From Deltaproteobacteria bacterium (GTDB lineage: Bacteria > Myxococcota_A > Polyangia > JAAYKL01): a stretch of DNA of 64,000 nt. The position numbers and the translations under genes are program-made. How positions within the stretch are numbered: position 1 is the stretch's first letter; the number at the start of each line of letters is the position of its first letter. Shown in pieces: positions 1,930 through 64,000 of the stretch. The notes under the pieces were generated by a model, which did no database searches, had not been told where the DNA came from, and saw only the letters and a program-made list of their open reading frames with translations. Location: positions 39,981-103,980 of the forward strand of contig JAQTNF010000001.1 in assembly GCA_028713995.1 (NCBI GenBank), in the 5' to 3' direction.

Positions 1930-3950
1930 GTGAGCCCTCCTACGTACTCCACCGAGAATGCGGTGGGAGCCACCTCGGCGCCGTACGTCCGCCGCGTGCC
2001 GATCGCGACGCCGGCCCGGCCGCCGAAGTCGAGCGACCAGGCGCGCGCCGGGAAGTAGTGCAGCCCGGCCGCGACGTATGGATAGAGCGCCCATCCCACG
2101 TCGCCCGCGTCTTCGCCCTGCCCCGCGCGCGCGGTCTGCACCTCGCACCCGAGCCCCGCGCCCGCGGACCACATGAGGTTCTTGAGGGCGAGGCCGCGGC
2201 CGCGCAGCTCGGGCCCCAGCTTGACCGTGGCGAAGTCCGCGTCCCAATTCACGGACAGGTTGCGCAGGCCGATCACCACGTTGCGGTGCGGCGCGAGGCC
2301 GAGGCCGAGGCCGCCGTCCACGCTCATCGCCATGGTGGTGGGCGTGCGCACGAGGGACGGGGCCAGGCTCAAGCCCACGTCGACGAACATGGCGTCGAGA
2401 TCCGGCGCGCCCGGTCCGCCCCGCGTGTTCGAATAGAACGCGTCGATGGCCGCGTAGCCGTAAGTGTAGAACGCGAGCCCGCCGAGCGCGGTCGCGCCGC
2501 CGAGCTTGGCGCCCGCAACCGGATCCGAGTCCGTTGAGCGCACGCTTCGTCCCACCAGCACGGCCCCGACCAGGGACCCCACGGTCAGCCCGAGCAGGAG
2601 CGCGCCGTCCGCGTAACGCTTGCCGATGAGCTGTGGCACGCCCGGCGCCACGAGCGAGATGCCCAAGGCCGCGGGAGGCACGAGCAGGGCGCCCTTGCGC
2701 CGCGCAAGGGAGGGTCCCTCGTCGACCCCGGCGGGGGCCGCCGACGGCTGCGGTCCCGGGTCCGCCTTTGCGGGCGCGATCGGAGAAGCCGCACGATCGT
2801 TCGCGCCGTTCCACCGCGCGCCCGGGCCCAGGGGGATCTCGGTGAGCGGCCGGACGTGCGCGCTCACGACCGGGACCGCGACCGGCTCGGGTGCGCCCTT
2901 GGCGGTCGCCACGACCATGGGGACGTCGATGAAGTCCGACGGGCCGAGAGTGATCGAATCCCCGTCCCTGAGCCTCGCCTCCGCGGCGTGCAGGCCGGTC
3001 GTCGTGCGCAGCCGGACGTTGTAAGAGCCGGGCGCGAGGGCCACGGCGAGCGCGGCGCCCTTCGCCTTCTCGACCTCGGCCTCGATGCGGCCCGAGGTGC
3101 CCGTGATGAGGACCGTGCCCTCGAGATCGGAAGCGAGATCGATGCGCGCCCGCGTGGCCGACGGGGATGTGAGATCCACGTCGCCCTCGCCCTGCAGCGC
3201 GTACAGGAACGTGGGATGCTGCGGGCCGGATGCGGTGCCCTCGGTCTCCTGCACGGTGAAACGGTAGGCGTACTCGTAGGCCTCGGACACGGACACGCGG
3301 CCGTCGCCGCCCGTGTCGGCCGGCCCGCGCAGGCCGGAGATGAGGTGGTGGCTGAAGAACGACGAGCCGAGCGCGTCGGATTCCTGGGCGTTCTCGATCG
3401 CCGCGGCCGAGGTGAGGATGACCATGCCGCGCGCGCGCACGGGCTGCTCCTCGAGGAACGGCGAGACGACGCGCCCTCCCTTCTGGCGCGTGATCTCCCC
3501 GGACTGGCAGGCGTCGATGATGACCACGCGCACCTTGGCAGGCGTCTGTTCGAGGCGCCGCTTCAGCTCCTCGAGGGCGAGCCCGCGGCCACCGAGGCGC
3601 AGCCACCCCGAGTCCGCGTGCCCGGAGTAGTAGAACACGAGCACCGCATCGCCGCCCGCCGCGTTGATGCGCGCCGCCATGTCGTCGAGGGCCGAGCGCA
3701 CCGCGTCCGGGCCCTCACCGAGGAGCAGCGTCATGTTCTCGCGCGCCACCCCGCCGATCTCGACGAGCAGGTCGGCCATGCGCTCCGCGTCGCGCTCCGC
3801 GTACCTGAGCGGCTCCGAGCGCGGCAGCCCCAGGTTGTTGCCCACGACGACCGCGAACCTCCGGCCGGACGCGGTCTCCTCGGCGCGCGCCCCTGCACCG
3901 GCGGTCGCGAGCAATGCGAATAGGAGGGCCGTGGGCGCGAGACGTTTCAC
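1917..3950 (-). CDS. secreted caspase-family (peptidase C14, orthocaspase/metacaspase-like) protein with a hydrophobic, Gly-rich C-terminal region
   Basis: Signal peptide after a GTG start with RBS AGAGGTGAGC. His-Cys catalytic dyad context 'VLVFYYSGHAD' ... 'VRVVIIDACQSGE' as in metacaspase/orthocaspase C14 domains. Two hydrophobic segments near aa 420-470. The C-terminal ~200 aa are Gly/aromatic-rich and end in 'GGLTWYH', which looks like an outer-membrane beta-barrel terminus. Confidence 0.75.
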   Translation of the reverse strand: MKRLAPTALLFALLATAGAGARAEETASGRRFAVVVGNNLGLPRSEPLRYAERDAERMADLLVEIGGVARENMTLLLGEGPDAVRSALDDMAARINAAGGDAVLVFYYSGHADSGWLRLGGRGLALEELKRRLEQTPAKVRVVIIDACQSGEITRQKGGRVVSPFLEEQPVRARGMVILTSAAAIENAQESDALGSSFFSHHLISGLRGPADTGGDGRVSVSEAYEYAYRFTVQETEGTASGPQHPTFLYALQGEGDVDLTSPSATRARIDLASDLEGTVLITGTSGRIEAEVEKAKGAALAVALAPGSYNVRLRTTTGLHAAEARLRDGDSITLGPSDFIDVPMVVATAKGAPEPVAVPVVSAHVRPLTEIPLGPGARWNGANDRAASPIAPAKADPGPQPSAAPAGVDEGPSLARRKGALLVPPAALGISLVAPGVPQLIGKRYADGALLLGLTVGSLVGAVLVGRSVRSTDSDPVAGAKLGGATALGGLAFYTYGYAAIDAFYSNTRGGPGAPDLDAMFVDVGLSLAPSLVRTPTTMAMSVDGGLGLGLAPHRNVVIGLRNLSVNWDADFATVKLGPELRGRGLALKNLMWSAGAGLGCEVQTARAGQGEDAGDVGWALYPYVAAGLHYFPARAWSLDFGGRAGVAIGTRRTYGAEVAPTAFSVEYVGGLTWYH

Positions 3951-3952
3951 GC

Positions 3953-4786
3953 TCACCTCTTGCGGATCCAGAAAGTCGCCTGCTCGCACGGGAGGGGCAG
4001 CGTCCCTGTTCGCAACGCGCCCGGCCCTCTCCCGGCCAGGCTGCGGGCCGCGCGCTCCACGGCCTGCGCGTCTCCGGCCGCGTCGCCCACGCACAGGAAG
4101 AACCTCTCGAACGACGGGGCGTCGTCGAGGACCACGCTCGCGTCGATGAGCCGGCCCCGCCCCTCGCGCAGCGTGACCGCGCCCGAGGCGTCCGTGGGGA
4201 AATAGCGGGTGACCGCGCCGCGGCCGTCGATGCCCACGAGGACCGCGGGCGCGCTTCGCGGGGCGTCGTACCAGAACTGGATGCGATCGCCCGCGCCGAG
4301 CACGTCGCCGCTCTCGCCCATCTCGCCGCCTCGCGCGCCCTGCCTGTAAAAGCCGAGCCTGAATCCGCCTCGGACGGCCGCTCCATCCTGCGCGCGCCCG
4401 AGCGACGAGGCGCTGCCCATGACGCGCGTCTGGGTGCGCCGCGCCTCCTTGTCGAAGGCCGCCACATACTCCCCGCGCCCGGATCCGGCGAGCCCGGGCA
4501 GCACGAACGCGAGCGCGACCGCTGCGGCCACGGCCACGGGCGCCGCGACGAGGACGAGCCGCGCCCACGGTCTTCGACGCGGCGCGATCCACAGGGCCCG
4601 CACCTTCTCGGGCACGGGGCGCAAGGGGAAGGCCGCCTCATCGGCTCGGGCCTCGGCCAGGGCGGCACGGCACGCGTCGCACTCCAGGGCGGCGGCCTCG
4701 ACCGCCTCGCGGGCAGGTCCCTCAAGCTCGCGGAGCAGGTAGCGCTCGATCGCGATCTGGTTGAGGCACCTGTGGTTCGAGGTCAT
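3953..4786 (-). CDS. membrane-spanning anti-sigma factor (ZAS-like H-x3-C ... C-x2-C N-terminus, one TM helix, periplasmic domain)
   Basis: N-terminus 'MTSNHRCLNQ...ECDACRAAL' gives H/C plus CxxC zinc-binding residues. TM segment 'ARLVLVAAPVAVAAAVALAFVLPGLAG'. The ATG overlaps the sigma-factor stop (ATGA). The stop lies 2 nt from the caspase GTG start. Confidence 0.7.
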   Translation of the reverse strand: MTSNHRCLNQIAIERYLLRELEGPAREAVEAAALECDACRAALAEARADEAAFPLRPVPEKVRALWIAPRRRPWARLVLVAAPVAVAAAVALAFVLPGLAGSGRGEYVAAFDKEARRTQTRVMGSASSLGRAQDGAAVRGGFRLGFYRQGARGGEMGESGDVLGAGDRIQFWYDAPRSAPAVLVGIDGRGAVTRYFPTDASGAVTLREGRGRLIDASVVLDDAPSFERFFLCVGDAAGDAQAVERAARSLAGRGPGALRTGTLPLPCEQATFWIRKR

Positions 4787-47994: not shown

Positions 47995-49113
47995 TCAGCT
48001 CTTGTGGCAGATCCGGCACATCTTGTGCTGCGACGGCACCTTCCCGTTGAAGAACTCATGGGTGCCGCCCGGACTGCCCTCTGTCTTCGGGTCGTGGCAG
48101 CTCGTGCAGGAGAAGCCGGGCGGGTGGGGATTCACGCCGCCGCCCGTGGAGTGGCACCTGACGCAGTTGGAGCGCGGTCCCTGGTCGTGGCAGGACGCGC
48201 ACTCCATGATGTTGCGGCGCGCGGCGCGGCCGTGGGAACCGGAGGTCTCGGCGGCGGACATCCAGCCCTTGCCGTGCGACGCGGGCATGCGGTTGCCGAG
48301 CTGGCCGCCGACGCCCTGCCGCTCGTGGCACGACGTGCAGAACCTGGTGCCGTGGCACTTCATGCAGCTCGTCTCGCCCAGACGCGCTTCCATGCTGTGG
48401 CGCGAGACGAAGTCGCCGCGGTGGATAAACTCGCGGTCGATGCGCTCCGGGTAGCGGATGGCCGGCGTCACGGTCGCGTTCTTCGAGTGGCAGTCCGCAC
48501 AGAAGCTCTGGTCATGGCACGTGGCGCACACGCTCTGGCCGCCCATGGCCCGCGCGCCGTGGCGTTCGAAGAAGCCCGCCTTGTGCTCGTACAAGGTCTC
48601 GGGCTTCTGAGGGTAAAGATCGAGCCGCTCGTGGCACTTGGGGCAGCGCCCGGAGTCGAGATCGTCCTCGTGACACCTGCGGCAGTCGGACATGGACGGC
48701 AGGAGCCTCTTGCCTGGGGCGAGCGCCGGCGCGTGGGCCGCGTCCTTGTGGCACGCGTCGCACCCGGTCACGCGCGAGAGGTGGGCCTCGTGCGAGAAGA
48801 CGAGGTGGGTGGGCGCGGGCCTGTTCCACTTCGCGGGGGTCGCCGGGTTGGCGTGGCAGATCTTGCAGTCGGTCGTTTTCGCCACGTCGTGGCAGTTCGC
48901 GCATTCGGGCTTCTTCGGAATGGCGTCGACCCGGCCCTCGGCGTCCTTGGCGAGCGCGCCGTGGCAGTCGGCGCAGGTCACGCTCTGCTCGGTGTGCACG
49001 TGGTGCGAGAAGACGATGGCGTCGCGCGGGCCACCCGCGACCGTCGAGCAGGCGCCCCCCGCGACCGCCGCGAGCGCGATGAGGAGGTTCCCATCGAGCG
49101 TGAATCGTCTCAT
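47995..49113 (-). CDS. multihaem c-type cytochrome lipoprotein (14 CxxCH motifs)
   Basis: Lipobox 'AVAGGAC'. 14 CxxCH motifs counted (CADCH, CANCH, CKICH, CDACH, CRRCH, CPKCH, CATCH, CADCH, CMKCH, CTSCH, CASCH, CVRCH, CTSCH, CRICH). The stop overlaps the upstream beta-barrel gene. Confidence 0.8.
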   Translation of the reverse strand: MRRFTLDGNLLIALAAVAGGACSTVAGGPRDAIVFSHHVHTEQSVTCADCHGALAKDAEGRVDAIPKKPECANCHDVAKTTDCKICHANPATPAKWNRPAPTHLVFSHEAHLSRVTGCDACHKDAAHAPALAPGKRLLPSMSDCRRCHEDDLDSGRCPKCHERLDLYPQKPETLYEHKAGFFERHGARAMGGQSVCATCHDQSFCADCHSKNATVTPAIRYPERIDREFIHRGDFVSRHSMEARLGETSCMKCHGTRFCTSCHERQGVGGQLGNRMPASHGKGWMSAAETSGSHGRAARRNIMECASCHDQGPRSNCVRCHSTGGGVNPHPPGFSCTSCHDPKTEGSPGGTHEFFNGKVPSQHKMCRICHKS

Positions 49114-50654
49114 GGCTTCCTCCGCTCGACGAAGCTCACGTCGAAATTATAGACGAATCTCAGCATGCCGCGCAGCTCGTGCTCCGCGTACGGCGTCACG
49201 CCCGCCGTGAACGCGCCGCCCGCCTCCCACTCCTCGAGCCTGTAGAAGAGCCCCACGTCCCCGAGGAACCCGACCGTCTGGCCGTTGTACGCGTCGTCGT
49301 AGAGGTCGACGTACAGGTCGGTGCTCGCGGCGAGCGGATCGAGGAACAGCGGCACCACGGCGCCGGCGCGCAGCTGGTGCATGCCTGTCACGTCCTGCGC
49401 AAACCTGCGGTACTCCACGAGCGCCGTGCCCTTGCCCTTGTCCCCGTACCGGACGCGCGCGCCGCCCACCACATCGTAGCCCAGGTCGAGCCGGTTCTTG
49501 TCCCCAACGGCCGCCGGCGCCTTCCAGCCGTAGAGGAGCTCGTGGTACCCGGCCTCGAGCGTGAGCCACGCAAGAGGCAGGAAGCGCGCCACGCCGCCCA
49601 CCGCGTCGTACTCGGAGTTCGAGAACACCGAGAAGATGGACATGTGCGACAAAAGCAAGGTGGGGTTCGCGTGCCGGTAATCGACGCTGAAATGGAACAC
49701 GTCGACCGGGAAGATGTCCACGGCCGCGTTGGCCTCCTGCACGTCGCGCGAGGGCAGGTCGATGGCCACGTTGGAGCTTACGCCGAACAGGTCGATGGGC
49801 GTGACGTCGAGGTCGACCCCGACGAGCTGCCGGCCCACCTCGCCCAGCTCCATGAGGCGCAGGAACGACACGCCGGCCGAGACCCGGCCCGCGAGGCGGT
49901 AGAAGACCCGGCCGCCCGCCGCGTAGTCCCACTGTCCCTCGCGTTCCCAGTCGCTCCCGCCGGCGCCGTAGTCGTCGTAACTCGTGTCCGGTTGCTCGCG
50001 GTACCAGTCCGGCCCCAGGTCCGGCTCCACGGGCAGGCCGCCGAACGCCTCGAGCCCCAGATGAACGGGCGATTCGTAGGACACGTCGAGCCCGTCCATG
50101 CGCAGGCCGCGCGTCGCGCCGGTGAAGAGCATCTGCCGGCCGAGCCGGAGGTCGAGCCCGCTGCTCGCGAACTGCATGTAGAGATAAGTGGGATCCGCCA
50201 CCACGCGCTGGTCGAAGTAGACGTCGGCCAGATCGAGCCCGGCCCAGCCCTGGAAGTGGACCGAGAGCCCGGGGTGGCCGAGCTCGTCCGCGCGCAGCTC
50301 GATGGTCTCGTAGAAAGGATACACGTCGAGGGTGCGCAGGCCGTAGCGCCCACCGCCGAGATCGTGCATCTGCGGCCTCTCACTCATGAACATCTCGCTG
50401 CGCAGGCTGCCGGACACACGCGTGTCGAGCTCGCGCACGGGAATCCGGGGCGGCGGGTTCGACGCCGTATCCTTGACCTTGGGCTCGACCGCAGGTGTCG
50501 GCTCAGGTGCAAGGACCGGTCCGGCGTCACTTCCCGCCCCCGGGCCCGCGTCTGTCTTCTCAGGCGCGACGCCCGCGTCCATGTCCGCGTCCTGTGCGCG
50601 CGCCTCGACCGCGGCGAGCGCGATGACGGCGACGGTGATGGCGATGATTCTCAT
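49110..50654 (-). CDS. putative outer-membrane beta-barrel (porin-like) protein
   Basis: Signal peptide 'MRIIAITVAVIALAAVEARA'. 514 aa of alternating amphipathic strands rich in Y/G/D. C-terminal 'LRFVYNFDVSF' is an aromatic-terminal beta-barrel signature. ATGA overlap with the upstream cytochrome gene. Confidence 0.55.
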   Translation of the reverse strand: MRIIAITVAVIALAAVEARAQDADMDAGVAPEKTDAGPGAGSDAGPVLAPEPTPAVEPKVKDTASNPPPRIPVRELDTRVSGSLRSEMFMSERPQMHDLGGGRYGLRTLDVYPFYETIELRADELGHPGLSVHFQGWAGLDLADVYFDQRVVADPTYLYMQFASSGLDLRLGRQMLFTGATRGLRMDGLDVSYESPVHLGLEAFGGLPVEPDLGPDWYREQPDTSYDDYGAGGSDWEREGQWDYAAGGRVFYRLAGRVSAGVSFLRLMELGEVGRQLVGVDLDVTPIDLFGVSSNVAIDLPSRDVQEANAAVDIFPVDVFHFSVDYRHANPTLLLSHMSIFSVFSNSEYDAVGGVARFLPLAWLTLEAGYHELLYGWKAPAAVGDKNRLDLGYDVVGGARVRYGDKGKGTALVEYRRFAQDVTGMHQLRAGAVVPLFLDPLAASTDLYVDLYDDAYNGQTVGFLGDVGLFYRLEEWEAGGAFTAGVTPYAEHELRGMLRFVYNFDVSFVERRKP

Positions 50655-51703
50655 GGCGCGTCCCCCGCGAGCTTGTCGCCCGACGCCTCGATCTTGCCGT
50701 CCATGTGGTACTTCAGGTTCACGCCGCCGCCGCTGATGGTGGACGAATGGCATTCCGCGCACCCGGTCGACTGTTCGTGACCCCCGCCGGGCGGGTACCC
50801 GTGGCACGCCTTGCACGGCAGGCCCGCGAGGCTGCCGTTCCAGGTCGGCGAAGTGTCCTCGCCGCCGTTGAGCGTCGCTCCATGGCAATACACGTCGTTG
50901 CAGCGCGTGCCGTCCCACGATGGGAAGACGCCTCCTGTCGTAGCCAAGCTGCCCTTGGCGAAGATCACGTCGACCGTGCCGTTGCGGTGCTTGCCCGATT
51001 GCGCCGGCGTCAATGGGACCTCGTGGCAGGTGTCGCACGGGACGGGCTTGCCGTACGTGCCGGCCGTGCGGTGCGCGTCGTGAGAGGCTCCGCCGCCGTT
51101 CGCGTCGTGGCACGTTCCGCACGCCGCGCCGGACACCTCGACCTTGCCGTCGAGGTGGTAATCCAGATTGAGGCCGTCGTCCGCGAACGTCTTGTCGTGG
51201 CACGCCACGCACTGCGTGCTGTCGGGGTGGTTCTCCGACGGCGGGTGCCCGTGGCACGCGATGCACGGCAGGCCGTTTTTCTCGTACGCGCCCCACGCCG
51301 GGGACGTGTCGGCGCCGCCGCTCAAGGTCGCGCCGTGGCAGTACGTGCCCTTGCAGCGCTTGCCGTCCCAGGACGGTGAGGCGCCGTCCGCCCGCGCCAG
51401 GCTGCCCTTGGCGAAGATCACGTCCGCCTTGCCGTTGCGGTGCGTCTCGGTGGCAGCCGCCGTAGGCGGAACCACATGGCAGGTGGCGCACGGCACCGGC
51501 TTCCCGTACGTGTCGGCGTTGGCAAACGCCTCATGGGTCGGGCCGTCGCCGATCGCCAAGTGACACGTACCGCACTGGCCCGAGCCCACACCGTCCCCGT
51601 CGTTGCGTACGGCCAGGCACGCGGGAAAGCCGAGCGCAAGGAGCGCTGCCACGGCCAGGGCAACGGGATCTGTCGTCCGCTTTCTCGTCTTCAAGATCTC
51701 CAC
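50651..51703 (-). CDS. multihaem c-type cytochrome (8 CxxCH plus 2 CxxxxCH; Geobacter-type C-x4-C...CxxCH repeats)
   Basis: Signal peptide. Motifs CGTCH, CATCH, CKGTYCH, CIACH, CVACH, CGTCH, CDTCH, CNDVYCH, CKACH, CAECH. Confidence 0.8.
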   Translation of the reverse strand: MEILKTRKRTTDPVALAVAALLALGFPACLAVRNDGDGVGSGQCGTCHLAIGDGPTHEAFANADTYGKPVPCATCHVVPPTAAATETHRNGKADVIFAKGSLARADGASPSWDGKRCKGTYCHGATLSGGADTSPAWGAYEKNGLPCIACHGHPPSENHPDSTQCVACHDKTFADDGLNLDYHLDGKVEVSGAACGTCHDANGGGASHDAHRTAGTYGKPVPCDTCHEVPLTPAQSGKHRNGTVDVIFAKGSLATTGGVFPSWDGTRCNDVYCHGATLNGGEDTSPTWNGSLAGLPCKACHGYPPGGGHEQSTGCAECHSSTISGGGVNLKYHMDGKIEASGDKLAGDAP

Positions 51704-52785: not shown

Positions 52786-54504
52786 TCAGGAGCGTCCCTG
52801 GCGGTCGTACAGGACCTTCGGCGCGAAGGCGCCCCTTTCGTCCAGGGCAGGCGCCAGGATCCTGGAGACGAGGGGCCCGCCGCTGTCCGCGCGCCCCAGC
52901 ACCACCATCAGGTCGAACGCCGCCGACAGAAGCCCCGCAGCCGCCGGCAGGGCCAAGGGAGCGCCGGCCATCGCCATGACCGCCGCAATCTCCCGGTCCA
53001 GGGGCCCGGCCGCCCCGAGCGGGATCTCGGCCACGATCCCCGGGCGTCCGGTCGCGGCGGCCAGGATCGTGGGGAGGTCCGCGAAGGGCGTTGCGCCCAC
53101 CGCGATCCAGTCCGGCTCCAGGTCGAGGGCCCGGCGCAGGAGCGCCGCGAATCCCTCGGACCGCGAGACCCCGGTTGCCAGGTTGCGCGCGAACAGGCCG
53201 ACCCGGCAGCGCCCTTCGATTCCGAGCAGGGGCAGATCCTCCACCGCGACCATGACCTCGTCTTCGGGCACGCTCCGGATCACGCCCCGCATGACCGCGA
53301 GGCGCGTCGCGGCCGAGCCGCCGACAACGGCGATTTTGGATTTCGCCTCGAGGGCCGTTCGTACCGCGGCCCATGCTTCTGGTGCCATGAGCCTGCCGTC
53401 GCCGCGCGGCCCGGGACCGTGGACCGGCACCTTGGTGATGAGAACCGAGGCCGAGGACGCCGCGGGCGGCACGGACGAGAAAACCAAATGTCCCTCCTCG
53501 AGCCTGTACCTCGCGAGCCCCGTCACGCCGTCGTCGCGCGCCTCAATTCCCGCACCCAGACAGCGCAGGGCGTCGAGGAGATCGTCTTCGCCGGGAAAGC
53601 CGCCTGAGCCCTCGGCCCACGCGCCGCCCTTGAGAAGCGCCACCTCGGAAGGCCCGAGCACGCGGATCGCCTCCACCTCGGGATCCTCGAGCCAGCCGCT
53701 GAACGGACCCAAGTCCACGGCCGCGCGGAAGGCCTTGCCGAGCAGCGCACCGCGCTCCGCTGCCGACGGGATCTTGCCGCGCGACGCGAGGTCCTCCACC
53801 AACTCCTCTAGCGTGATGCGCACCTTGCCGGCCGTGCCCTCGTCGACCCGCGACGGTGCGGCGCTCCGGTCGATGCGTTTCACCTCGCGCGCCACCCGGT
53901 CGAGCAACGTCTCGACCAGAGCGAAGATCGCGGAGTCGGAGCCGGGCAGCTCGAGCAAGGGGACTTCCGCGGGCGGGGCGCCGGGGTGCGCCTTGGCCGC
54001 GAGCTGTTCGCCCACGGACGCGATGGGCGAGGTCACCACGCCCTCGGCGGCCTGAGGCAGGGCGCCTGCCTGGCGCGCCTTGGGCCGTCCCGCGCGCGGG
54101 TCCTTGGGGGCTGCTGCCTTGGCCGGTACGGACACGATGGCCGCTGGCGGCACCGGTCCCGCAGGCTTGGGCAGATCCTTGGGTGCATCGTCAGGCTCGT
54201 CCAGATCGAGGGCCTCATGGCCCTCCAGGCTCAGGATGAAATCACCCAGATAGACCTTGTCGCCACGGGTGAGACGGGTCGGCTCCTGGATGCGCCGCCC
54301 GTTCACGTAGGTGCCGTTGGTGCTGCCCATGTCGGTCAGCACGAACTCGCCGCCCTTGAGCTCGATCTTGGCGTGGCGCTTGGACACGTTGCCGCGCGGC
54401 AGGACGATCTGGTTGCCTTGCACGCGCCCGATCGAGATCATCTCCTCGTCGAACTCGATGCGCTGCTGGGTCCCACCCTTCTCGGTGACGATGACGGTGA
54501 ACAT
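52786..54504 (-). CDS. FHA-domain protein fused to a CpaF/TadA/VirB11-like secretion-ATPase domain with degenerate catalytic motifs
   Basis: RBS AGGAGGG. FHA 'ISIGRVQGNQIVLPRGNVSKRHAKIELKGGEFVLTDMGSTNGTYVNGRRI'. The C-terminal domain aligns to the CpaF core, but Walker A reads 'VVGGSAATR' where 'GxTGSGKTT' is expected, and the His-box reads 'TGRPG' where 'TGHDG' is expected. Confidence 0.55.
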   Translation of the reverse strand: MFTVIVTEKGGTQQRIEFDEEMISIGRVQGNQIVLPRGNVSKRHAKIELKGGEFVLTDMGSTNGTYVNGRRIQEPTRLTRGDKVYLGDFILSLEGHEALDLDEPDDAPKDLPKPAGPVPPAAIVSVPAKAAAPKDPRAGRPKARQAGALPQAAEGVVTSPIASVGEQLAAKAHPGAPPAEVPLLELPGSDSAIFALVETLLDRVAREVKRIDRSAAPSRVDEGTAGKVRITLEELVEDLASRGKIPSAAERGALLGKAFRAAVDLGPFSGWLEDPEVEAIRVLGPSEVALLKGGAWAEGSGGFPGEDDLLDALRCLGAGIEARDDGVTGLARYRLEEGHLVFSSVPPAASSASVLITKVPVHGPGPRGDGRLMAPEAWAAVRTALEAKSKIAVVGGSAATRLAVMRGVIRSVPEDEVMVAVEDLPLLGIEGRCRVGLFARNLATGVSRSEGFAALLRRALDLEPDWIAVGATPFADLPTILAAATGRPGIVAEIPLGAAGPLDREIAAVMAMAGAPLALPAAAGLLSAAFDLMVVLGRADSGGPLVSRILAPALDERGAFAPKVLYDRQGRS

Positions 54505-54518
54505 GGCTCTTGACCCTC

Positions 54519-56075
<1,557 letters not shown>

Positions 56076-56233
56076 GGAATTGTGAGGTTATCGCGGGGGT
56101 TGAACGGGGTCAATCGGCGCTGGGTCAAGTGACGCCGTGGTCGAGATTGCCTCGCGGGTGAGGACATGATATATGGAAAATATGCTTTCATGTCCGTACG
56201 CCGCAAAAACGCTGCAAAAAAAGGAGAAAAGCC

Positions 56234-57331
56234 ATGAAAAGGGATTTTGTCGCGGAGATCCTGGCAACGTGTTTTTTCGCGGTGCTCCTGGGAAGTTGTG
56301 AGGCGGTGGATGAGCGGGAAATCTCCGGACAGGCTTCCTTGCAAAGCCTTGTCGGAAATACGCAGGAGACCGGCTATACCGAATGGAAGGGCGCGGTCGG
56401 CGTCGACAACGGCTGCACGGGCACGCTCATCGATCCGGAGGTCGTTCTTACGGCGAAACATTGTGTTGAAACGGGGGGGAGCAACTTCGGAATACAGGGG
56501 GGAGCGTACATGAAAATGCAGCTCGCGCATTCGACCCAGAAGCTCCTGGGAGCGACCGACGTGGCGCTGCTGAAAATCACGCCGGCCCTTACGAACATCG
56601 AATGCTACGGCGTCAAGAGCGGCTCGGAGGTCACCGTGGGAACGACAGGCTGGCTCGTGGGATATGGCACGACCGACACGAGCGGAGCGGACGTCGGGTT
56701 CGGCGTGCATCGGAAAGGCCAGTCAACCGTTCTTGACGTCTCGGGCAGCATCATCGAGCTCGGAGGGGAATCGAACCACTGCACCGGCGATTCCGGAGGC
56801 CCGTTCTTTGTTGAGCAAAATGGGGAGTGGGTTGTCGCAGGTGTCACTTCGTATGGTGAAGGCGACGACTGTCCGGTGGAAAGCGGCGGCTTCGACGAAA
56901 GCGTTTTCTACGTCTATGACTGGATAAATGATGGAGTCATGCAGTTGACCGGGCATGGGGTTGAGGACAGCAATTGCGGTAGTTTGACAGATACCGATAC
57001 CGGCAGTGATACCGACGGCGATAGTGACGGCGATACCGACAGTGACGGCGATACCGACAGCGACAGCGATTCTGACAGCGATGGCGATACCGACAGTGAC
57101 AGCGATTCTGACAGCGATGGCGATGCCGACAGTGACAGCGATTCTGACAGCGACGGCGATACCGACAGTGACAGCGATTCTGACAGCGACGGCGACGCCA
57201 GCAGCGATGGCGATTCTGATGGCGATGCGGACACTGGTGCGGACTCACGGAAAGGGGATGGCTCGTGCGGATGCTCGCTTGTCGGTGCAAGAAGCGCCTT
57301 CGCGTCTCCGATGAGTCTCATTCTTCTATAA
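56234..57331 (+). CDS. trypsin-like (S1) serine protease with a poly-Asp/Ser linker and MYXO-CTERM tail
   Basis: Catalytic triad contexts 'TAKHC' (His), 'DVALLK' (Asp) and 'GDSGGP' (Ser). 85-aa D/S/G/T linker. C-terminal '[23 protein letters not shown]'. AT-rich upstream region with an AAGGAG RBS. Confidence 0.8.
56987..57244 (+). repeat. coding tandem repeat (36-bp units, GAC/AGC/GAT-rich) encoding a ([12 protein letters not shown])n linker
   Basis: Read directly: repeated 'gacagtgacagcgattctgacagcgatggcgatacc' units. Confidence 0.7.
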
Positions 57332-57403
57332 AGACAAGCTTTGGTCTCGAAGAGCGCGGCTTTCGCGCAAGACAACTTCATCTGGAAGGAATGGGGCGTC
57401 GGC

Positions 57404-57652
57404 CTAAAGGTCTTCTACGGATTTTAGCATCTCCGGAATGAAATGCTGCCGCACGCGGATGAGGCTCCGCTCCTTCCCTTTCTGGCGCACTACCATCAGT
57501 TCGCCATCCGGTCTCACCAAATCGCCCGTGACCACATCGTCGTCAAATGTGTACTCGGTCTTTTCGGCGTACTTCACATCGCCCTGTGCGAACGATACCA
57601 CGGCCATCAGAAACAGCGCTCCGCCAACGAGCAACCCGGTCATGCGCTTCAT
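57404..57652 (-). CDS. small secreted protein (82 aa)
   Basis: RBS AGGAGG 7 nt before the ATG. Signal peptide 'MKRMTGLLVGGALFLMAVVSFAQG'. Located directly downstream of the TPR lipoprotein gene. Confidence 0.45.
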   Translation of the reverse strand: MKRMTGLLVGGALFLMAVVSFAQGDVKYAEKTEYTFDDDVVTGDLVRPDGELMVVRQKGKERSLIRVRQHFIPEMLKSVEDL

Positions 57653-57705
57653 TGTTTTCCTCCTGTCGACTCTCATCGCCCCATGATACCAGAAAATGGC
57701 TTTCC

Positions 57706-59397
57706 TTACTTCTTCTTCTCAGGTGCTGGCTTACCATCCTTGGCCGCATCGGCCTTGGGCTGCTCTCCGGCCTTGGGCTGCTCTCCGGCCTTGGGCTGCT
57801 CTCCGGCCTTGGGTTGCTCTCCGGCCTTGGGCTGCTCTCCGGCCTTGGGCTGCTCTCCGGCCTTGGGCTGCTCTCCGGCCTTGGGCTGCTCTCCGGCCTT
57901 GGGCTGCTCTCCGGCCTTGGGCTGCTCCCCGGCCTTGGGCTGCTCCCCGGCCTTGGGCTGTGCCCCCGCAGCCGGAGCCGGAGCCGCACCCGCGGCAGGC
58001 GCCGCGCCTTCAGCTGGGATCTCGGGTGGGGCCTGCATGCCAGCCTTCTCCTTTTCTTCCAGCTGTTTGGCCTTCTCCATCATCTTCTTGGCTTCTTCCT
58101 CGCGTTTCTTCTGCTCCTCCGCGAGCTTCTTGATCTCGGCCATCTGGCGCTCGGCTTCGCGGATCTGCTTCACGGCCTCGTCGCACTTCTTGATGCGGAG
58201 CTCAGCCTTCGCATACCAGGAAAGAAGAGGCCCTTTCCCATCGGGATCGGCCTTGTGGTTCTCAGTGGCGTTCTGCAAAAATTTTTCGAAGACCTTCTTG
58301 GCCTTCTCGTAGCCCTCGGGCGTGCCCGGGTTCTCGTAGTCCATCTCCAAGAGGCCCAGGTTGAAGATGTAGTCGGTCCGCTTGGGGTCGATTTCGGCCG
58401 CCTTCTTGTACTCGGCCCGAGCGCCGACGAAGTCGCGGAGGCCTCTCATGGCCACGCCAAGGCCCATATGCGCGTCGTAGCTCCTGGGGTTGAGGACAAT
58501 GGCCCTCTCGAATGCCGTCTTCGCCTCGGCATACCCGCGGAAGCTCAGGTTGATGGCAGCAAAATTCATGTACGACTCAAACAAGTTCGGGTCCTTCTTG
58601 AATGCGGCCTCGAAGGCCTTGAGCGCCTCGACGAGGTCGTTCTGGGCCATCAGGATCTGCCCCAGCGCGTGGTAGACGGGACCGTATTCCGGATTCAGCT
58701 GGATGGCCTGTTCGCAGACCAGCTTTGCCAGCGTGAAGTATGAGGGCTTTTGGTTGTCGATCGCGTAGTCGTAATACAGCATTGCCAACTGGTAGAGCGC
58801 GGGCATGAACTTGGATTCGATGGCGAGCGCGGTCCGAAGGTTGTAAAGAGCCTTCTCGACCTTCTTCCGCTCTCGAAGGAGCGTGGCCGCGTTCGTGTAG
58901 GCCGGAACGGCCTCCAGGCGATTCGGGCCGGCCGCCACCGCTCTGCGCAGCATGTCCTCGGCCTCCTGCGTGCGACCATTCTCCAGGTTCATCACGGCAA
59001 GGTAGTCCAAGGCCGGTTGGTAGTCCGCCACGACCTTCAGGGCGTTCTCGAACGCCTCCTTGGCCTTGTCGTTCATCCCGCACTTGCGATAAACGACGCC
59101 GACGTTGAAAAGAGCCTCAATCATCTTGCCGTGCTCGCCAGCAACATCCAGAAAGGCGGAGGCCACGGACTGGCACTTGTCTTTGGGCCAGCCCAGCTTC
59201 TCGGCCTCCATGTAGCTCTTGGCGGCCGCCGTGAAGTCCTCCTTTGCCTCTTGCGTGATCACCGGCCGGCCGGGCCCACCCCCGTGCTCGCCCCCTGCAC
59301 CAGCTGCGCCTGCCTGAACCGCGCCACCGCACCCGGCGGCCAGAGTCAGAAACATCACCGAGGAAAGACACGCGATAGCTTGGATTCTGATCTTCAT
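57706..59397 (-). CDS. TPR-repeat lipoprotein with a coiled-coil and a C-terminal (AGEQPK)x12 repeat
   Basis: Lipobox 'LTLAAGCGG'. Multiple TPR units ('ALYQLAMLYYDYAID', 'YHALGQILMAQND', 'YDAHMGLGVAMRG'). Lys/Glu coiled-coil. 12 perfect AGEQPK repeats. Confidence 0.7.
   Translation of the reverse strand: MKIRIQAIACLSSVMFLTLAAGCGGAVQAGAAGAGGEHGGGPGRPVITQEAKEDFTAAAKSYMEAEKLGWPKDKCQSVASAFLDVAGEHGKMIEALFNVGVVYRKCGMNDKAKEAFENALKVVADYQPALDYLAVMNLENGRTQEAEDMLRRAVAAGPNRLEAVPAYTNAATLLRERKKVEKALYNLRTALAIESKFMPALYQLAMLYYDYAIDNQKPSYFTLAKLVCEQAIQLNPEYGPVYHALGQILMAQNDLVEALKAFEAAFKKDPNLFESYMNFAAINLSFRGYAEAKTAFERAIVLNPRSYDAHMGLGVAMRGLRDFVGARAEYKKAAEIDPKRTDYIFNLGLLEMDYENPGTPEGYEKAKKVFEKFLQNATENHKADPDGKGPLLSWYAKAELRIKKCDEAVKQIREAERQMAEIKKLAEEQKKREEEAKKMMEKAKQLEEKEKAGMQAPPEIPAEGAAPAAGAAPAPAAGAQPKAGEQPKAGEQPKAGEQPKAGEQPKAGEQPKAGEQPKAGEQPKAGEQPKAGEQPKAGEQPKAGEQPKADAAKDGKPAPEKKK
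57751..57966 (-). repeat. 12 tandem copies of an 18-bp unit (ggccttgggctgctctcc on the plus strand) encoding AGEQPK
   Basis: Read directly. Copies are near-identical, with C/T wobble in the last three. Confidence 0.85.
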
Positions 59398-59409
59398 TGG
59401 CTTTCCTCC

Positions 59410-62400
59410 CTATTCCTCTTTCGACGCGCTCTCGGCTTCGCCCTTGGAAGACATCGTGCCGCCGCCGATCTCGGCCGCGGAGGTTGTCAGCTCCCTGTCC
59501 ATCTTCTGGGCCGCAGTTTCGAGCTCCAGGATGGGGTCCGGTGTCGCCCAGACCGTCAGCCTGTTGTTGTTCTGGACGCGGATCTCCTCGGACACCGGAA
59601 ACTCCTGCGGGCTGAGCTTGTTGAGCTCGCGCTCGCACCGCATGGAGTTCTCGTTGAACCACCGGACCTTGGTGGAGATGTTGAGGCAGTGCGTGTACAG
59701 CGTGACCGCGATGTCGTGCATGGGCTGAGCCTTGCCGTCCAGCGACTCTCGGTAGATATCGACGAGTTCCTGATTGTCCTTGATCGATGGTGGAACTGGC
59801 GCGTCATACAGCGTCTGCATGAACTCGAGCTGCATGTCGGCCACGCGCGCGGCCGCCGCCATCTCCCATTCAGGCACGTGCATTTTGGCCACCAACGCGA
59901 ACATGTCGGAGGCATCCTTGAGCACCTTGCCCTTGTTTTCCATCCACGGGACGAACTTGAATTTGATCCAGTATTGGAACTGCGGCTCCCCAACTTCCTT
60001 CTTGGCCTCCTTCTCCGCATCTTCCTTCTTCATTTCTCCCCATCTCACGAGCAGCCTACGGTACTTCTTCCATTCCTCCGCCGCCTTCAGATCTTCCGGC
60101 TTCTGTTCGCTCTTCCACCACTTCTCGACGGTCTTGGGAATCTCCTTCTCGGAGCGGAACTCGGGAAGGGTGATCCTCTCGAACTCCTGGAACTTCCTCT
60201 CGGCCACGTAATATCTAGCCTTGGCAGCCGCGATGAGCATGGCCGCCTTGCGTTTGTTATCCGGGACCTTGTCCATGGCGCCTGTGTCGTACACGGCGAG
60301 CGCCTGTTTGTAAGCTTTCTCGGCGGCGGCGTAGTCCGGCTTCTTCTGAAGCCAGTACGAATCGCCGATCATGACGTAAGCCTGGACCTGCTCGTCGAGG
60401 ATCTTGAGCTTCCCATAGTTCTTCAGGTAGCTGTCGTAGTGCTTGCGAAGCTTCTCGTAATCCTTCTCGTTAACGTAGATGAACCCGACTCCGAACACCA
60501 CTGTGGCGGTTTCGGCGGGCTTCCTCTGCTTGTAGTACTTCTCGAACAGGTTCATGGTCTCGAGCGCCTGCTCGTACCGCCCGAGACCGATGTAAAACAT
60601 CACTGCGTTCGACAGGGCCTCCGGGGCTTCCTTTTCTCCCGAATACTTCGTGGCGAACGACTTGTAGTTCTCCGCGGCCTCTCCATAAAACGCGAGGGCG
60701 TGGTAGTTCGCTCCGATATAGTAGGCGGCCTTCTTGGAATGCTCGCAGTCCGGATAGAGCTCGATCATCTTCTTGCGGAAGTTGATGGCCTGCCCGACGA
60801 GCCGCGCCGCCTCGAGGTTGATTGCCGTATTGAACAGCACCTCGCACATGCCCCTATCATCGTAGACTCCCTGATACTTCGTGAAAATCGTGATGTAGAT
60901 CTCGGCCGATTCCTTGAAGCGCTTGCGGGTTGTGAGAGCTTCAGCCTTCTTTCGCAGCACGCCGACCTTGAGCGCCTTGATCTGCCCCGCGAACTCCGCG
61001 TCCTTCATGAGCGACTTTCCGGGCGCTTTGGCGTCATCGATGAAGAGATCGACCGCTGACGCCAAATCGTCGTAGCACGAAGGCTCCGGCGGCTCGACCA
61101 TGCTGCCGAGCACGTTCAGGCAGTCCAGGTACAGGTTCGCGGCGTAGACGGCGAGCTGGTTGTCCGAGTGCTTGACAGCGATGTCCTTGAACAAAACCGC
61201 CGCCTCGGCGAACATGTTGGCCTCGTAATAAATTCGCGCGCGGCGATATTTGATGTTGACCAGATCCTGGCCTTCGGACACGTAGCAGACGTACCGGTCA
61301 TACGACTTGAGCATGCCCGCCTGGACCTGCGTGAGCTCGCTGGGCTTCAGGACGACCTTCGCGGCCTCATCACACGCCTTGGTGCAAGCGTTCTTCTCCT
61401 CGTCCTTGCCCTTGCACTTCTTCTTGCAGTCCTTGCATTTCTTGTCGCAGCCGCCATCCGTGGCCTGGTCGGTCTTGAGCTTGTGCGTGCGGTCCTTGTT
61501 CTCGAGACCGATCTGCACGGCGATCTTGTTGTAGCAGAGCACCGCCGCGTATGCGGCCTCGGCCAGATACTCGCCCTGCGGATTCATTTCCACAACCGCG
61601 TCGAAGGCGGGCGCGCACTTCTCCCAGTTCTCCATCGCCCAATAGAGGTCGGCCTTGTAATACGCGATGCGGTACTTTGTGGGCCTCGTTTTCTCTTCGA
61701 AACCCTCGACTTTTACTTCATCGATATTCGGAAACATGTTCAAAATCTCGTCATACAGGCCAATGGCGAGATTCATGGTGTTCTTGTCCTTGGTGCCCGG
61801 CGACGACTCGGTGCCCACGGCCTCGCGGTGCCACTGCAGCGCCTGGTCGACGGCCAGCGCGAGCGTGTCCGCGGCGCACTGCTTGACCTTCTGCTTGTCG
61901 TGTTTCCCCTCCTCGGAGAACTTCTTGTATAGGCCGAGCTGCCGCTTGAGCTCGGTGAGCTGCTCGTCCTTGGGTCGCGAGCTGATCACCGCGTTGGTGA
62001 CCATGGTCTGGTAGTGACACAGCTCGTCGCTGTTGTTTTTTGCGTAGTTGTCGATCTCGAGCGCCTCGAGCTTGTGGAACACGATGATTGCGTCCGCCCA
62101 GTGGCCCTCATCGTAGTAAAGCTCCGCCAGCTTTATGAGCATCTTGTGGGAGAGATCGGCACCGATCTTCTGGAAGAACTCCCACGCTTGACTCGGGTTG
62201 CCGATCTTCGAGAACGCGTCGACGAGCTCCATTCTGGACCGCTTGGCGACCGCCTGCGCCTCCTTGTTGTCCGGATGGTCGACCGCATACTGGATGACCT
62301 GATTGAACTGGTTGATGGTCCTCTTGTAGTCCTGCATGTTAAAGAGGCACCATGCTTGGTAGTACATTGCTATGATGTAGTTGGGGTTGTTGTCAGCGCC

Positions 62401-63294
62401 CCATTCCACGACCTTCTCGTAGGCCTTCATCGCCCGTTCGACGTCCCGCGCCTCGTTAAAGTAGTATTCACCGTACGCCATCCATGCGTGCGGGATGAAT
62501 CTCGACTGCGGATAGTTCCTGATGAGTTCCTGGTAGAAGACGCGAGCCCTTTCCCGGTAGCTTTCCTTCTTCGACTTCTCCTTCTCCTCCATCTCGCTCG
62601 CGATCTGGTCAATTTCGTACGCGATCGCAAAAAGGATTTCGTCGTAAGCCGGGTAGTCCGGGAAGTTGTTGCGGATCTCCACATATGCTTTGATGGAGAG
62701 TTCCCGGTACTCTCGTGCCTTTTCGTCCAGCGCCTTTTGCTGCGCCTTCAGACGGGCCGCTTCCTTGGCGTTCTTTTCCTTGGCCTGGAAGATTTTCTCA
62801 TCCAGATCGCGTGCCATGAAATTGAGTTGCGAATAGAACTCCTGATACGCATCCGCGAGACGCTTGAGAATCTCGGCCTTTTCCGGATTGTCGTTGCCGG
62901 TCTGTGTGACGAGACGCTTGATAAGATCGATTTCCTTTTTTAAAATATCGATCTTTTTCTTCTCACGCTTCTTCTTGAACGAAGATTGGATAACGTTCTT
63001 GACGTAATCCTTCCCGAGGCTCGGACCCAACGCCGCTTTTTCCTTCTTCTTCTCTTCCTTCTTCTCGGCCGAAGAGACCTTGACCGACTTCCTATTTGCG
63101 AAATCTCCGATCTTGAACCCGCCCGGACAGGTCATCACCTTGTCCTCAACGGACTTCGGGATGCACACCTCGTTTGCAGCACTTGCCGAGGGCTTGTTGG
63201 TCGTCTCCGCGAAGACCCGCGGCGACACCGAAAAAACGACGGCGAGAACGGCCATGGCGGCCAGACACACCACCCCATCTCTCTTGCGAATCAT
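59410..63294 (-). CDS. large (1294 aa) secreted TPR-repeat protein
   Basis: Signal peptide 'VVCLAAMAVLAVVFSVSPRVFA'. Lys/Glu-rich coiled-coil segment. TPR-like repeats throughout ('YYQAWCLFNMQDY', 'AAYYIGANYHALAFYGEAAENY', 'AYVMIGDSYWLQKKPDYAAAEKAY'). A Cys/Lys cluster 'CDKKCKDCKKKCKGKDEEKNACTKAC'. Lower GC. Confidence 0.7.
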   Translation of the reverse strand: MIRKRDGVVCLAAMAVLAVVFSVSPRVFAETTNKPSASAANEVCIPKSVEDKVMTCPGGFKIGDFANRKSVKVSSAEKKEEKKKEKAALGPSLGKDYVKNVIQSSFKKKREKKKIDILKKEIDLIKRLVTQTGNDNPEKAEILKRLADAYQEFYSQLNFMARDLDEKIFQAKEKNAKEAARLKAQQKALDEKAREYRELSIKAYVEIRNNFPDYPAYDEILFAIAYEIDQIASEMEEKEKSKKESYRERARVFYQELIRNYPQSRFIPHAWMAYGEYYFNEARDVERAMKAYEKVVEWGADNNPNYIIAMYYQAWCLFNMQDYKRTINQFNQVIQYAVDHPDNKEAQAVAKRSRMELVDAFSKIGNPSQAWEFFQKIGADLSHKMLIKLAELYYDEGHWADAIIVFHKLEALEIDNYAKNNSDELCHYQTMVTNAVISSRPKDEQLTELKRQLGLYKKFSEEGKHDKQKVKQCAADTLALAVDQALQWHREAVGTESSPGTKDKNTMNLAIGLYDEILNMFPNIDEVKVEGFEEKTRPTKYRIAYYKADLYWAMENWEKCAPAFDAVVEMNPQGEYLAEAAYAAVLCYNKIAVQIGLENKDRTHKLKTDQATDGGCDKKCKDCKKKCKGKDEEKNACTKACDEAAKVVLKPSELTQVQAGMLKSYDRYVCYVSEGQDLVNIKYRRARIYYEANMFAEAAVLFKDIAVKHSDNQLAVYAANLYLDCLNVLGSMVEPPEPSCYDDLASAVDLFIDDAKAPGKSLMKDAEFAGQIKALKVGVLRKKAEALTTRKRFKESAEIYITIFTKYQGVYDDRGMCEVLFNTAINLEAARLVGQAINFRKKMIELYPDCEHSKKAAYYIGANYHALAFYGEAAENYKSFATKYSGEKEAPEALSNAVMFYIGLGRYEQALETMNLFEKYYKQRKPAETATVVFGVGFIYVNEKDYEKLRKHYDSYLKNYGKLKILDEQVQAYVMIGDSYWLQKKPDYAAAEKAYKQALAVYDTGAMDKVPDNKRKAAMLIAAAKARYYVAERKFQEFERITLPEFRSEKEIPKTVEKWWKSEQKPEDLKAAEEWKKYRRLLVRWGEMKKEDAEKEAKKEVGEPQFQYWIKFKFVPWMENKGKVLKDASDMFALVAKMHVPEWEMAAAARVADMQLEFMQTLYDAPVPPSIKDNQELVDIYRESLDGKAQPMHDIAVTLYTHCLNISTKVRWFNENSMRCERELNKLSPQEFPVSEEIRVQNNNRLTVWATPDPILELETAAQKMDRELTTSAAEIGGGTMSSKGEAESASKEE

Positions 63295-63299
63295 GCCTG

Positions 63300-63995
63300 C
63301 TACCTCCCGCAGTGGCTGCTGATCGGTTGCCTGTAGTAGCCGAGTTCATCGCGCCAATACTCGCCCTGGAACGGCCACAAGACGTGCTCTGCATCGCTCT
63401 CGATGTTGGCCTGCTGTACGGTCGGGCCTTGCACGGCCTGCTCCTGCTGGATTTCGAGATCGAGCTCGCCGCGCAGCGCCTTGAGGATTTCAATCTCCAC
63501 GCGGGTCGCCTGGTTCAGGAGGTCCTGGATCTCGCCCAGGAGGCGTTCGTAACGGGAACGGGCCAGATTCCCGGTATTGTCGATGGCCACGGACTTGGCC
63601 GTGTTGATGTCCTGCTGGATTCGGATGCCGGCGCCCGAGTTCACGAACATGGGCGGCATCTTTGACAACTTCTGCTCCTCCTTCTCGAGGATGTCGACGT
63701 ACTCCAGATTGCGCAGCAGGGTGCGGTCTCCCAGGGCGCCCTTGATGACGCTCAGGATCTCCGGGGAGAAGCCCATGATGGTCTTCTGCTCCGCCGCCGT
63801 ACCGCCGCCGCCCGGCGAAGCCTTGACATCGACCTCGGGACCGGCCCCTGCCTTGTCCAACTCGCGAAGCTTGCGCAGGAAGTCGAAGAAGGCCTGGTTG
63901 TTGGGGAACTTGCCCAGAGCCGCCTGCAGCTGCTGTTGGATGGGCGTGTACTTCTTGGTGAAATCGGCGACCGTCTTCTGTGCATCGTCGTACAA
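63300..63995 (-). CDS. hypothetical protein; the N-terminus probably lies beyond the window edge (ORF-track start is a TTG)
   Basis: 231 aa in a coherent frame with ordinary composition. Stop is 6 nt upstream of the 1294-aa TPR gene start. The first codon in the window is TTG, so the true start is probably upstream of nt 64000. Confidence 0.4.
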   Translation of the reverse strand: MYDDAQKTVADFTKKYTPIQQQLQAALGKFPNNQAFFDFLRKLRELDKAGAGPEVDVKASPGGGGTAAEQKTIMGFSPEILSVIKGALGDRTLLRNLEYVDILEKEEQKLSKMPPMFVNSGAGIRIQQDINTAKSVAIDNTGNLARSRYERLLGEIQDLLNQATRVEIEILKALRGELDLEIQQEQAVQGPTVQQANIESDAEHVLWPFQGEYWRDELGYYRQPISSHCGR

Positions 63996-64000
63996 GCACT

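Follow-up and report, generated by a model that had tools for sequence, protein, structure and literature searches.

An FHA-fused CpaF-like pseudo-ATPase family encoded with a DUF2254 membrane protein in uncultivated Myxococcota

Introduction

ATPases of the CpaF/PilB/VirB11 superfamily, which power secretion, pili and the archaellum, have been studied as motors. In this study, we describe a member of this superfamily that appears to have left that role. It is encoded at 52786..54504 on the minus strand of a 64-kb stretch of DNA from a Deltaproteobacteria bacterium (contig JAQTNF010000001.1; the whole stretch analysed is called the window below), and consists of an FHA domain fused to a CpaF-like module in which the catalytic motifs are degenerate. 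We refer to it as the pseudo-ATPase.

Two described systems come closest. KilF, described as the central hexameric ATPase of the Tad-like Kil apparatus with which Myxococcus xanthus kills its prey, carries an N-terminal FHA domain and is encoded in a cluster with secretin, platform and pilin genes (PMC8460266). In the PATAN regulators of Synechocystis (PixE/PixG, PatA type) the PATAN domain is the output domain, binds PilB1/PilC and is membrane-localised (bioRxiv 10.1101/2021.06.11.447907). Our literature search returned nothing relevant on pseudo-CpaF proteins, on proteins combining FHA with DUF4388 or PATAN, or on the function of DUF2254. FHA-CpaF fusions as such are thus known, and many canonical CpaF representatives in a scan of 1.84 billion representative sequences also bear an FHA-like N-terminus, but the pseudo-ATPase form with its conserved DUF2254 partner is apparently undescribed.

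Results

Gene and protein layout

The gene and the three regions of its product, a cytoplasmic protein, are as follows.

52786..54504, minus strand: whole gene, FHA domain, linker and CpaF-like pseudo-ATPase, 572 amino acids (aa) plus stop; supported by the open reading frame (ORF), Shine-Dalgarno sequence and start codon, and identical to NCBI model P0001
54193..54504, minus strand: FHA domain, aa 1-104; phospho-threonine-binding residues all intact; supported by Pfam FHA, the GarA/OdhI alignment and a predicted local distance difference test score (pLDDT) of ~95
53944..54192, minus strand: disordered Pro/Ala-rich linker, aa 105-187; pLDDT <50; 83 residues, of which 17 are Pro and 20 Ala
52789..53943, minus strand: CpaF/TadA-type two-domain module, consisting of N2D and a RecA-like C-terminal domain (CTD), aa 188-572; catalytic residues gone; supported by profile, Foldseek and TIGR03819

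The stop codon lies at 52786..52788. We place the start at ATG 54504 because an AGGAGG sequence lies 9 nt upstream (overlapping the TAG stop of the preceding DUF2254 gene), because homologues begin with the family consensus MFTV, and because the public NCBI gene model P0001 is a 572-aa protein with 100% identity to that of the window. A longer ORF (52786..54543, ATG 54543, 585 aa) was rejected as the start on the same three grounds. The GC content of the window is ~69%, and that at third codon positions (GC3) exceeds 0.8 in real genes. In the AlphaFold2 (AF2) model the mean pLDDT is 85, rising above 90 in both folded parts. The linker is poorly conserved and has the highest rate of nonsynonymous change (dN) among the three regions.

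The FHA domain is well supported by its Pfam model: over aa 36-100 of the 585-aa ORF, PF00498 reaches 71.8 bits, with the cut-off at 20.7. The best sequence matches of the domain in the PDB are GarA and OdhI. In characterised FHA domains the phospho-threonine contacts are made by G-R, S-x-x-H, T-N-G and N, and the residues G26, R27, S41, H44, T62, N63, G64 and N68 are invariant among 50 homologues. From these residues the domain looks competent for phospho-threonine binding, in agreement with the initial annotation of the locus, which had proposed an N-terminal phospho-threonine reader. The Yop-YscD_cpl model matches the same domain, and the NCBIfam GltG and TagH models give weak matches.

A divergent CpaF-type module

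The relation of the remaining protein to secretion ATPases is distant. Pfam T2SSE (PF00437) gives no match even at E<=1. The NCBIfam TadA-family model TIGR03819 aligns over profile positions 29-336 of 340 with E=3.5e-11 and 42.9 bits against a cut-off of 373, and the NCBIfam VirB11 model reaches 32 bits against a cut-off of 250; the curated thresholds for T2SSE or CpaF/TadA membership are therefore missed by all three models. A profile built from 23 family members, however, matches the Caulobacter crescentus CpaF structures 8rjf, 8rkd and 9e24 with E=1.1e-19 over 334 positions and VirB11 with 4e-12, followed more weakly by GspE and FlaI. Likewise, a Foldseek search with the AF2 model returned CpaF 8rjf as the best PDB neighbour (E=1.8e-17), then FlaI, GspE and VirB11/HP0525. 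The two-domain fold of T2SSE/CpaF-TadA ATPases, N2D plus RecA-like CTD, is present, and on the evidence of profiles and model we regard aa ~188-570 as a real and complete, very divergent CpaF/TadA-type module. Pfam FHA, the CpaF profile and Foldseek agree in this respect with the fusion originally annotated at exactly these coordinates.

Every catalytic motif is replaced

The motif register was taken from pairwise HMMER alignments to VirB11 2gza, GspE 2oap and CpaF 8rjf, and further from a family-profile alignment and an hmmalign run with ~100 canonical CpaF representatives, which read GGTGSGKTT/IEDAAEL/DRIVVGECR/TGHDGSLTTLHAN in the aligned motifs. All alignments are gap-free and agree with each other.

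53299..53322, minus strand: Walker A remnant, aa 395-402, GGSAATRL against GGTGSGKT; Gly4 replaced by Ala, Gly6 by Thr, Lys by Arg401, Thr by Leu
53224..53244, minus strand: Asp box remnant, aa 421-427, VEDLPLL against IEDAAEL; E-D retained, third acid replaced by Leu
53086..53112, minus strand: Walker B remnant, aa 465-473, DWIAVGATP against DRIVVGEC; catalytic Glu replaced by Ala
53020..53052, minus strand: His box remnant, aa 485-495, TGRPGIVAEIP against TGHDGSLTTLH; His replaced by Arg487, second His by Pro495
N2D motif: RLEEGHL against RLPDGSR; second Arg gone, first N2D Arg retained

Neither Walker A (GxxGxGK[ST]), Asp box (E-D-x-x-E), Walker B (hhhhGE) nor His box (TGH...H) can be read in the protein. 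Because the catalytic residues are all replaced, ATP hydrolysis by the pseudo-ATPase is, as far as these alignments allow a prediction, very unlikely; a Walker A Lys-to-Arg exchange typically abolishes hydrolysis in P-loop ATPases. The initial annotation had likewise concluded that the motifs are degenerate and hydrolysis unlikely, and its reading of the His box Arg in TGRPG (aa 485-489) is borne out as Arg487. Its assignment of Ala to the Walker A Lys within VVGGSAATR (aa 393-401) is not, since the gap-free alignments put Arg401 at this site and the earlier register was off by one or two positions. We reject the Ala register, in which the Thr would be kept: across the family it is the Arg that is invariant, and the Thr in front of it is not conserved. 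It had also been proposed to map the motifs by profile alignment to CpaF, PilB and VirB11: the module is secretion-ATPase-like, and its motifs stay broken in the agreed register.

A maintained family

A first homologue search yielded 55 full-length relatives with 33-83% identity, none of which (0/55) has a precomputed T2SSE match. All 55 carry Arg at the Walker A Lys site, preceded by five freely varying P-loop residues (family pattern GxxxxxR[LMRK]). The Walker B Glu is likewise missing in all 55, its position holding T, A, G, S or N, and nearly all relatives show the His-box pattern GRxGVhAELPLG, with Arg near-invariant at the first His site. In score, too, the family stands apart: its members reach 355-533 bits on the family profile and the other FHA-T2SSE proteins of the first search at most 127 bits. 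In the HMMER scan of the 1.84 billion representatives, ~38 clusters at 50% identity lie above ~190 bits, some with intermediate scores, and canonical CpaF proteins level off at ~110-135 bits. The ~38 clusters share length, architecture and the motif substitutions, and the carriers found are exclusively metagenome-assembled genomes (MAGs) of uncultivated Myxococcota ('Deltaproteobacteria'). Nei-Gojobori ratios of nonsynonymous to synonymous substitution (dN/dS) for the CpaF-like domain are 0.20 (L004 versus L011) and 0.30 (L002 versus L008) in two independent pairs of loci.

Because the substitutions are shared across the family and dN/dS lies at 0.2-0.3, we consider this a maintained pseudo-ATPase and not a product of decay; catalytic loss is, as judged from sequence, a fixed trait of a small, discrete family under purifying selection. 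Conservation and selection fit a retained non-catalytic role, which may be regulatory or scaffolding. Decay would also produce the loss of all catalytic motifs, yet a decaying paralogue (a pseudogene in progress) or a mis-annotated functionless ORF is effectively refuted by the intact frame with its strong Shine-Dalgarno sequence, the ~38 clusters of the same architecture, the dN/dS values, the pLDDT above 90 in both folded domains, the invariant replacement residues and the strict synteny described below.

Beyond the family, many other FHA-fused CpaF-like proteins of Myxococcota (P0058-P0120) have the Walker A Lys replaced, e.g., GPSGSGVTT, GPAASGRST and GSGTAAVVS; FHA-CpaF paralogues of this phylum may thus have lost their ATPase motifs repeatedly. 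One of them, P0112 (L089 10001-12001), is an orphan in a housekeeping neighbourhood; its gene lies beside one for sigma-70, and a gene for a kinase-FHA fusion is found 8 kb upstream. Separately, P0132, P0134, P0137-P0140 and P0146 are very long proteins (864-1605 aa) with two to four CpaF-like stretches and mostly canonical motifs, either tandem multi-ATPase polypeptides or, possibly, the result of fused gene calls.

Partner genes

Two genes flank the pseudo-ATPase gene on the same strand.

54519..56075, minus strand: DUF2254 membrane protein, 518 aa; four transmembrane helices and a predicted cytoplasmic alpha-solenoid; stop codon 14 nt upstream of the pseudo-ATPase start codon
51782..52705, minus strand: FHA + PATAN (DUF4388/PatA_N) protein, 307 aa; Pfam FHA and DUF4388; start codon checked

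The DUF2254 gene, overlooked in the initial annotation, is the conserved partner: it directly precedes the pseudo-ATPase gene, in the same orientation, in the window and in all related loci examined, with a spacing of -13 to +26 nt, and the two form an operon-like pair. The FHA-PATAN gene, which had already been noticed as a second FHA/DUF4388 neighbour, starts 80 nt downstream of the pseudo-ATPase gene in the window and is found downstream in ~12/18 of the module loci; its product in the window combines FHA with PATAN and lacks a receiver domain. The outer flanks vary between loci and include IleRS/LspA, CutA1, carboxypeptidase and cytochrome genes. The arrangement is illustrated by the following contigs.

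Seven contigs (P0002, P0004, P0008, P0032, P0035, P0049, P0055; 34-83% identity): DUF2254 upstream in 7/7, gaps -13 to +23 nt; FHA-PATAN downstream in 6/7
One 886-kb contig, found via its DUF2254 gene: DUF2254 upstream; FHA-PATAN downstream

The AF2 model of the DUF2254 protein (pLDDT 86, predicted template modelling score 0.82) has four transmembrane helices at the N-terminus and, behind them, an all-helical, HEAT-like domain of ~320 residues. Because of the positively charged N-terminus and the even number of transmembrane helices, the helical domain should be cytoplasmic. As modelled, this architecture is the signature of a protein-docking scaffold, and it has no similarity to the T2SSF/TadB/TadC platforms.

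When a DUF2254 alignment was scanned over one genome per GTDB species, 80 loci were obtained and screened with the family hidden Markov models. In 12/80 loci the pseudo-ATPase lies directly downstream, and their DUF2254 proteins (54-68% identical to that of the window) are the copies most similar to it. A further 55/80 lack the pseudo-ATPase with at least 2.5 kb of downstream sequence seen, including Sandaracinaceae, Polyangiales and Sorangium cellulosum, and 13/80 were too short to judge. Because DUF2254 is widespread without the pseudo-ATPase, its distribution marks it as the older and far more conserved partner (53-91% identity among the 120 matches listed in a homologue search), and the FHA-pseudo-CpaF gene as an addition limited to one uncultivated clade. 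We also looked for clade-specific DUF2254 positions as candidate docking sites for FHA: 17 were found, none of them a cytoplasmic Thr, and their signal is inseparable from phylogeny.

Some observations concern single loci. L014 (JAIPFM010000056.1), binned as Phycisphaerae, encodes a DUF2254 protein 59% identical to that of the window and has no pseudo-ATPase in 4 kb downstream; either the contig is mis-binned and comes from Myxococcota, or this may be a member of the close DUF2254 clade without the module. In one sub-clade a fourth gene lies directly upstream of DUF2254 (L002 6849-8318, L003 6635-8305, L004 3033-4691, L008 6257-7951). It encodes 490-564 aa, with 35-41% identity between loci and a weak N-terminal receiver-domain match, and is often preceded by a divergent TetR+PqqD pair. 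We rejected it as part of the core module because a tblastn search of the window for a counterpart was negative.

Genomic surroundings

The 64-kb window holds no gene for a Tad, type II secretion system (T2SS) or type IV pilus (T4P) platform, a secretin, a pilin, a second T2SSE ATPase or a Ser/Thr kinase, and in the ~20 related loci neither machine genes, nor an active ATPase, nor a Ser/Thr kinase is a conserved neighbour. When all six frames of the window were scanned for motifs of Ser/Thr kinases, of PP2C and of the T2SSE Walker A, the one match was the Walker A of an ABC transporter, and no Ser/Thr kinase catalytic motif was present. In neither the window nor the ~20 loci is the pseudo-ATPase encoded with a platform protein (TadB/C, PilC or GspF) and machine genes. 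Its initial interpretation as a regulatory or scaffolding subunit of an envelope machine is thus partly supported: a non-catalytic role fits the conservation and selection, and gene context gives no support for the link to a machine.

The remaining window consists of housekeeping or miscellaneous genes. Upstream of the module lie three genes:

56234..57331, plus strand: trypsin-like gene
57706..59397, minus strand: TPR gene
59410..63294, minus strand: TPR gene

The proximity of a TPR cluster had been pointed out earlier. The TPR genes are present, but they are not conserved neighbours elsewhere, and we rejected the association because the TPR and trypsin genes lie in a lower-GC stretch and are absent from related loci. 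Over 56000..64000, which covers these three genes, GC drops from ~0.69 to 0.57-0.60, and this segment may be foreign or recently acquired.

Directly downstream of the module (window 47995..51703, minus strand) are two multihaem cytochrome c7-type genes, at 50651..51703 and 47995..49113. The gene between them (49110..~50650, ~515 aa) encodes a signal-peptide-like N-terminus and has no Pfam match; a 793-aa ORF at 49110..51491 was discarded as an artefact of two overlapping frames, with a GC3 switch near 50500. On the contig of the nearest relative, a cytochrome c7-like gene likewise follows the FHA-PATAN gene. Two further genes of the window are unrelated to the pseudo-ATPase: a ~900-aa gene with a caspase (Peptidase_C14) domain (1917..4637, minus strand) and a histidine kinase fragment at the window start (3..1037, plus strand).

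Discussion

In this study, we propose that the pseudo-ATPase probably serves as a membrane-anchored scaffold under phospho-threonine control, together with DUF2254 and the FHA-PATAN protein; it looks like a motor fold that has been reused for signalling. The three proteins would form a phospho-threonine-regulated complex at the inner membrane, where the DUF2254 solenoid would dock the (probably oligomeric) CpaF-like module on the inner membrane face, comparable to the docking of active CpaF on its platform. Both FHA domains could bring or hold the complex at phospho-threonine sites written by an unlinked Ser/Thr kinase, and the PATAN domain may bind the ATPase-like module as PATAN does with PilB1 in Synechocystis. 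The CpaF fold would then act as a scaffold or switch without nucleotide hydrolysis, not as a motor, and its possible output is control of DUF2254 itself or, in trans, of an active PilB/CpaF-type motor.

Several points weigh against this proposal. We infer the three-protein complex from gene order alone. DUF2254 orthologues with 49-55% identity occur without FHA genes in most Polyangia; because DUF2254 works there without a pseudo-ATPase, the link between both may be a loose one. About one third of the module loci have no PATAN gene, and the phospho-threonine input is assumed from the FHA domains alone, with no linked kinase or phosphatase. Finally, the invariant or near-invariant Arg at the former Lys and His sites suggests that the old pocket still binds something, unlike a passive scaffold.

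This last point can be carried further. Tentatively, DUF2254, FHA-pseudo-CpaF and FHA-PATAN could together be an undescribed signalling module in which a motor ring has become a non-hydrolysing, arginine-lined ligand sensor or phospho-sensor, placed on a HEAT-repeat membrane protein and wired to Ser/Thr kinases, a possibility that we rate as rather doubtful. If true, the large DUF2254 family would gain a first functional handle, and a T2SS/T4P-type ATPase would be seen to have given rise to a pseudo-enzyme.

A ligand-sensing switch as the function of the module itself is unlikely. Here, the pocket rebuilt with arginines (R401, R487 and R334 of N2D) would bind a phosphate-rich ligand without hydrolysing it, with ATP/ADP, cyclic di-GMP (c-di-GMP), (p)ppGpp or a phosphorylated peptide as candidates, and binding would shift N2D relative to the CTD, or the oligomer, and so signal to DUF2254 or the PATAN protein. 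Binding of c-di-GMP within or close to a degenerate nucleotide site occurs in other ATPase-family regulators such as FleQ and MshE. In the pseudo-ATPase the Asp box keeps its E-D. Across sequences that are 33-47% identical, the Arg at the Lys site is invariant in otherwise freely variable P-loop surroundings, and that at the first His site near-invariant. However, neither of the internal glycines of the P-loop is left, nor is the Thr that coordinates Mg, the five variable residues separating Gly and Arg argue against a conserved cradle for nucleotide phosphates, and the arginines could equally be structural, forming salt bridges to the retained Asp-box acids.

We regard it as quite improbable that the pseudo-ATPase, under Ser/Thr-kinase control, is a regulatory or scaffolding subunit of an envelope machine (Tad, T4P or another) whose genes lie elsewhere in the genome, where it could join an active CpaF/PilB/KilF-type ATPase in mixed rings, cap it or compete with it for its platform. 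The CpaF fold is fully preserved including N2D, which would suit such a role, and many FHA-CpaF fusions have intact motifs (P0144, P0145, P0170 and others). Precedents exist in the Kil Tad-like system of M. xanthus, with its FHA-fused ATPase KilF and several further FHA proteins (PMC8460266), and in the action of PATAN domains on PilB and PilC (bioRxiv 10.1101/2021.06.11.447907). The gene neighbourhoods speak against it: no machine genes are found in the window or conserved in the ~20 loci, and the only invariant partner is DUF2254, the model of which is unlike the T2SSF/TadB/TadC platforms.

A still-active NTPase (nucleoside triphosphatase) working with non-canonical residues, i.e., Arg for the Walker A Lys and another general base, is very remote: Arg keeps the positive charge and the Asp-box E-D persists, but the family has lost at once the Walker B Glu, third Asp-box acid, Walker A Thr, both P-loop glycines, one N2D Arg and the two His, the vicinity holds no conserved acidic residue that could compensate, and the Lys-to-Arg exchange is generally lethal to hydrolysis.

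The proposed scaffold bears on three questions. A superfamily member that is under selection, linked to no machine and stripped of its catalytic residues would show that scaffolding or sensing is also within the reach of this fold. Its strict pairing with DUF2254 is a first contextual clue to the latter, an uncharacterised family of thousands of members. The FHA-PATAN neighbour would extend the pairing of PATAN with ATPases past cyanobacterial phototaxis, and to Ser/Thr phosphorylation as opposed to two-component signalling. Since all carriers so far are uncultivated Myxococcota MAGs, their study needs heterologous expression.

Comparison with known systems

The best structural match of the pseudo-ATPase is CpaF/TadA, the Tad motor of C. 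crescentus (8rjf, 8rkd, 9e24), to which N2D and the RecA-like CTD can be aligned over ~335 residues, with the Asp-box E-D and the first N2D Arg kept. Identity is nevertheless as low as ~18%, and the FHA domain stands where CpaF has its own N-terminal region. Unlike CpaF, the pseudo-ATPase has other residues in Walker A (for Lys, Thr and the glycines), Walker B (for Glu), the Asp box (for the third acid) and the His box (for both histidines), and its gene does not lie beside those of TadB/C, CpaC, pilins or a prepilin peptidase. With KilF, compared by its description, it shares an N-terminal FHA domain on a CpaF-type module, an origin in Myxococcota and further FHA proteins nearby, whereas the family differs from KilF in having neither catalytic motifs nor a Tad-like cluster.

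The FHA-PATAN neighbour recalls the PATAN-PilB1 pair of Synechocystis, in that a PATAN protein is paired with a PilB-superfamily (T2SSE-type) module, a pairing that we here infer from gene adjacency. It differs in that the PATAN protein carries an FHA instead of a receiver domain, the presumed target is a pseudo-ATPase, and no T4P genes are linked. TagH/Fha1 of the type VI secretion system, SctD/YscD of the type III secretion system and the gliding protein GltG have an FHA domain of the same subtype and share the idea of an assembly recruited by phospho-threonine. Here, however, the matches are limited to the FHA domain, the remaining protein is unrelated and those machines are not encoded nearby.

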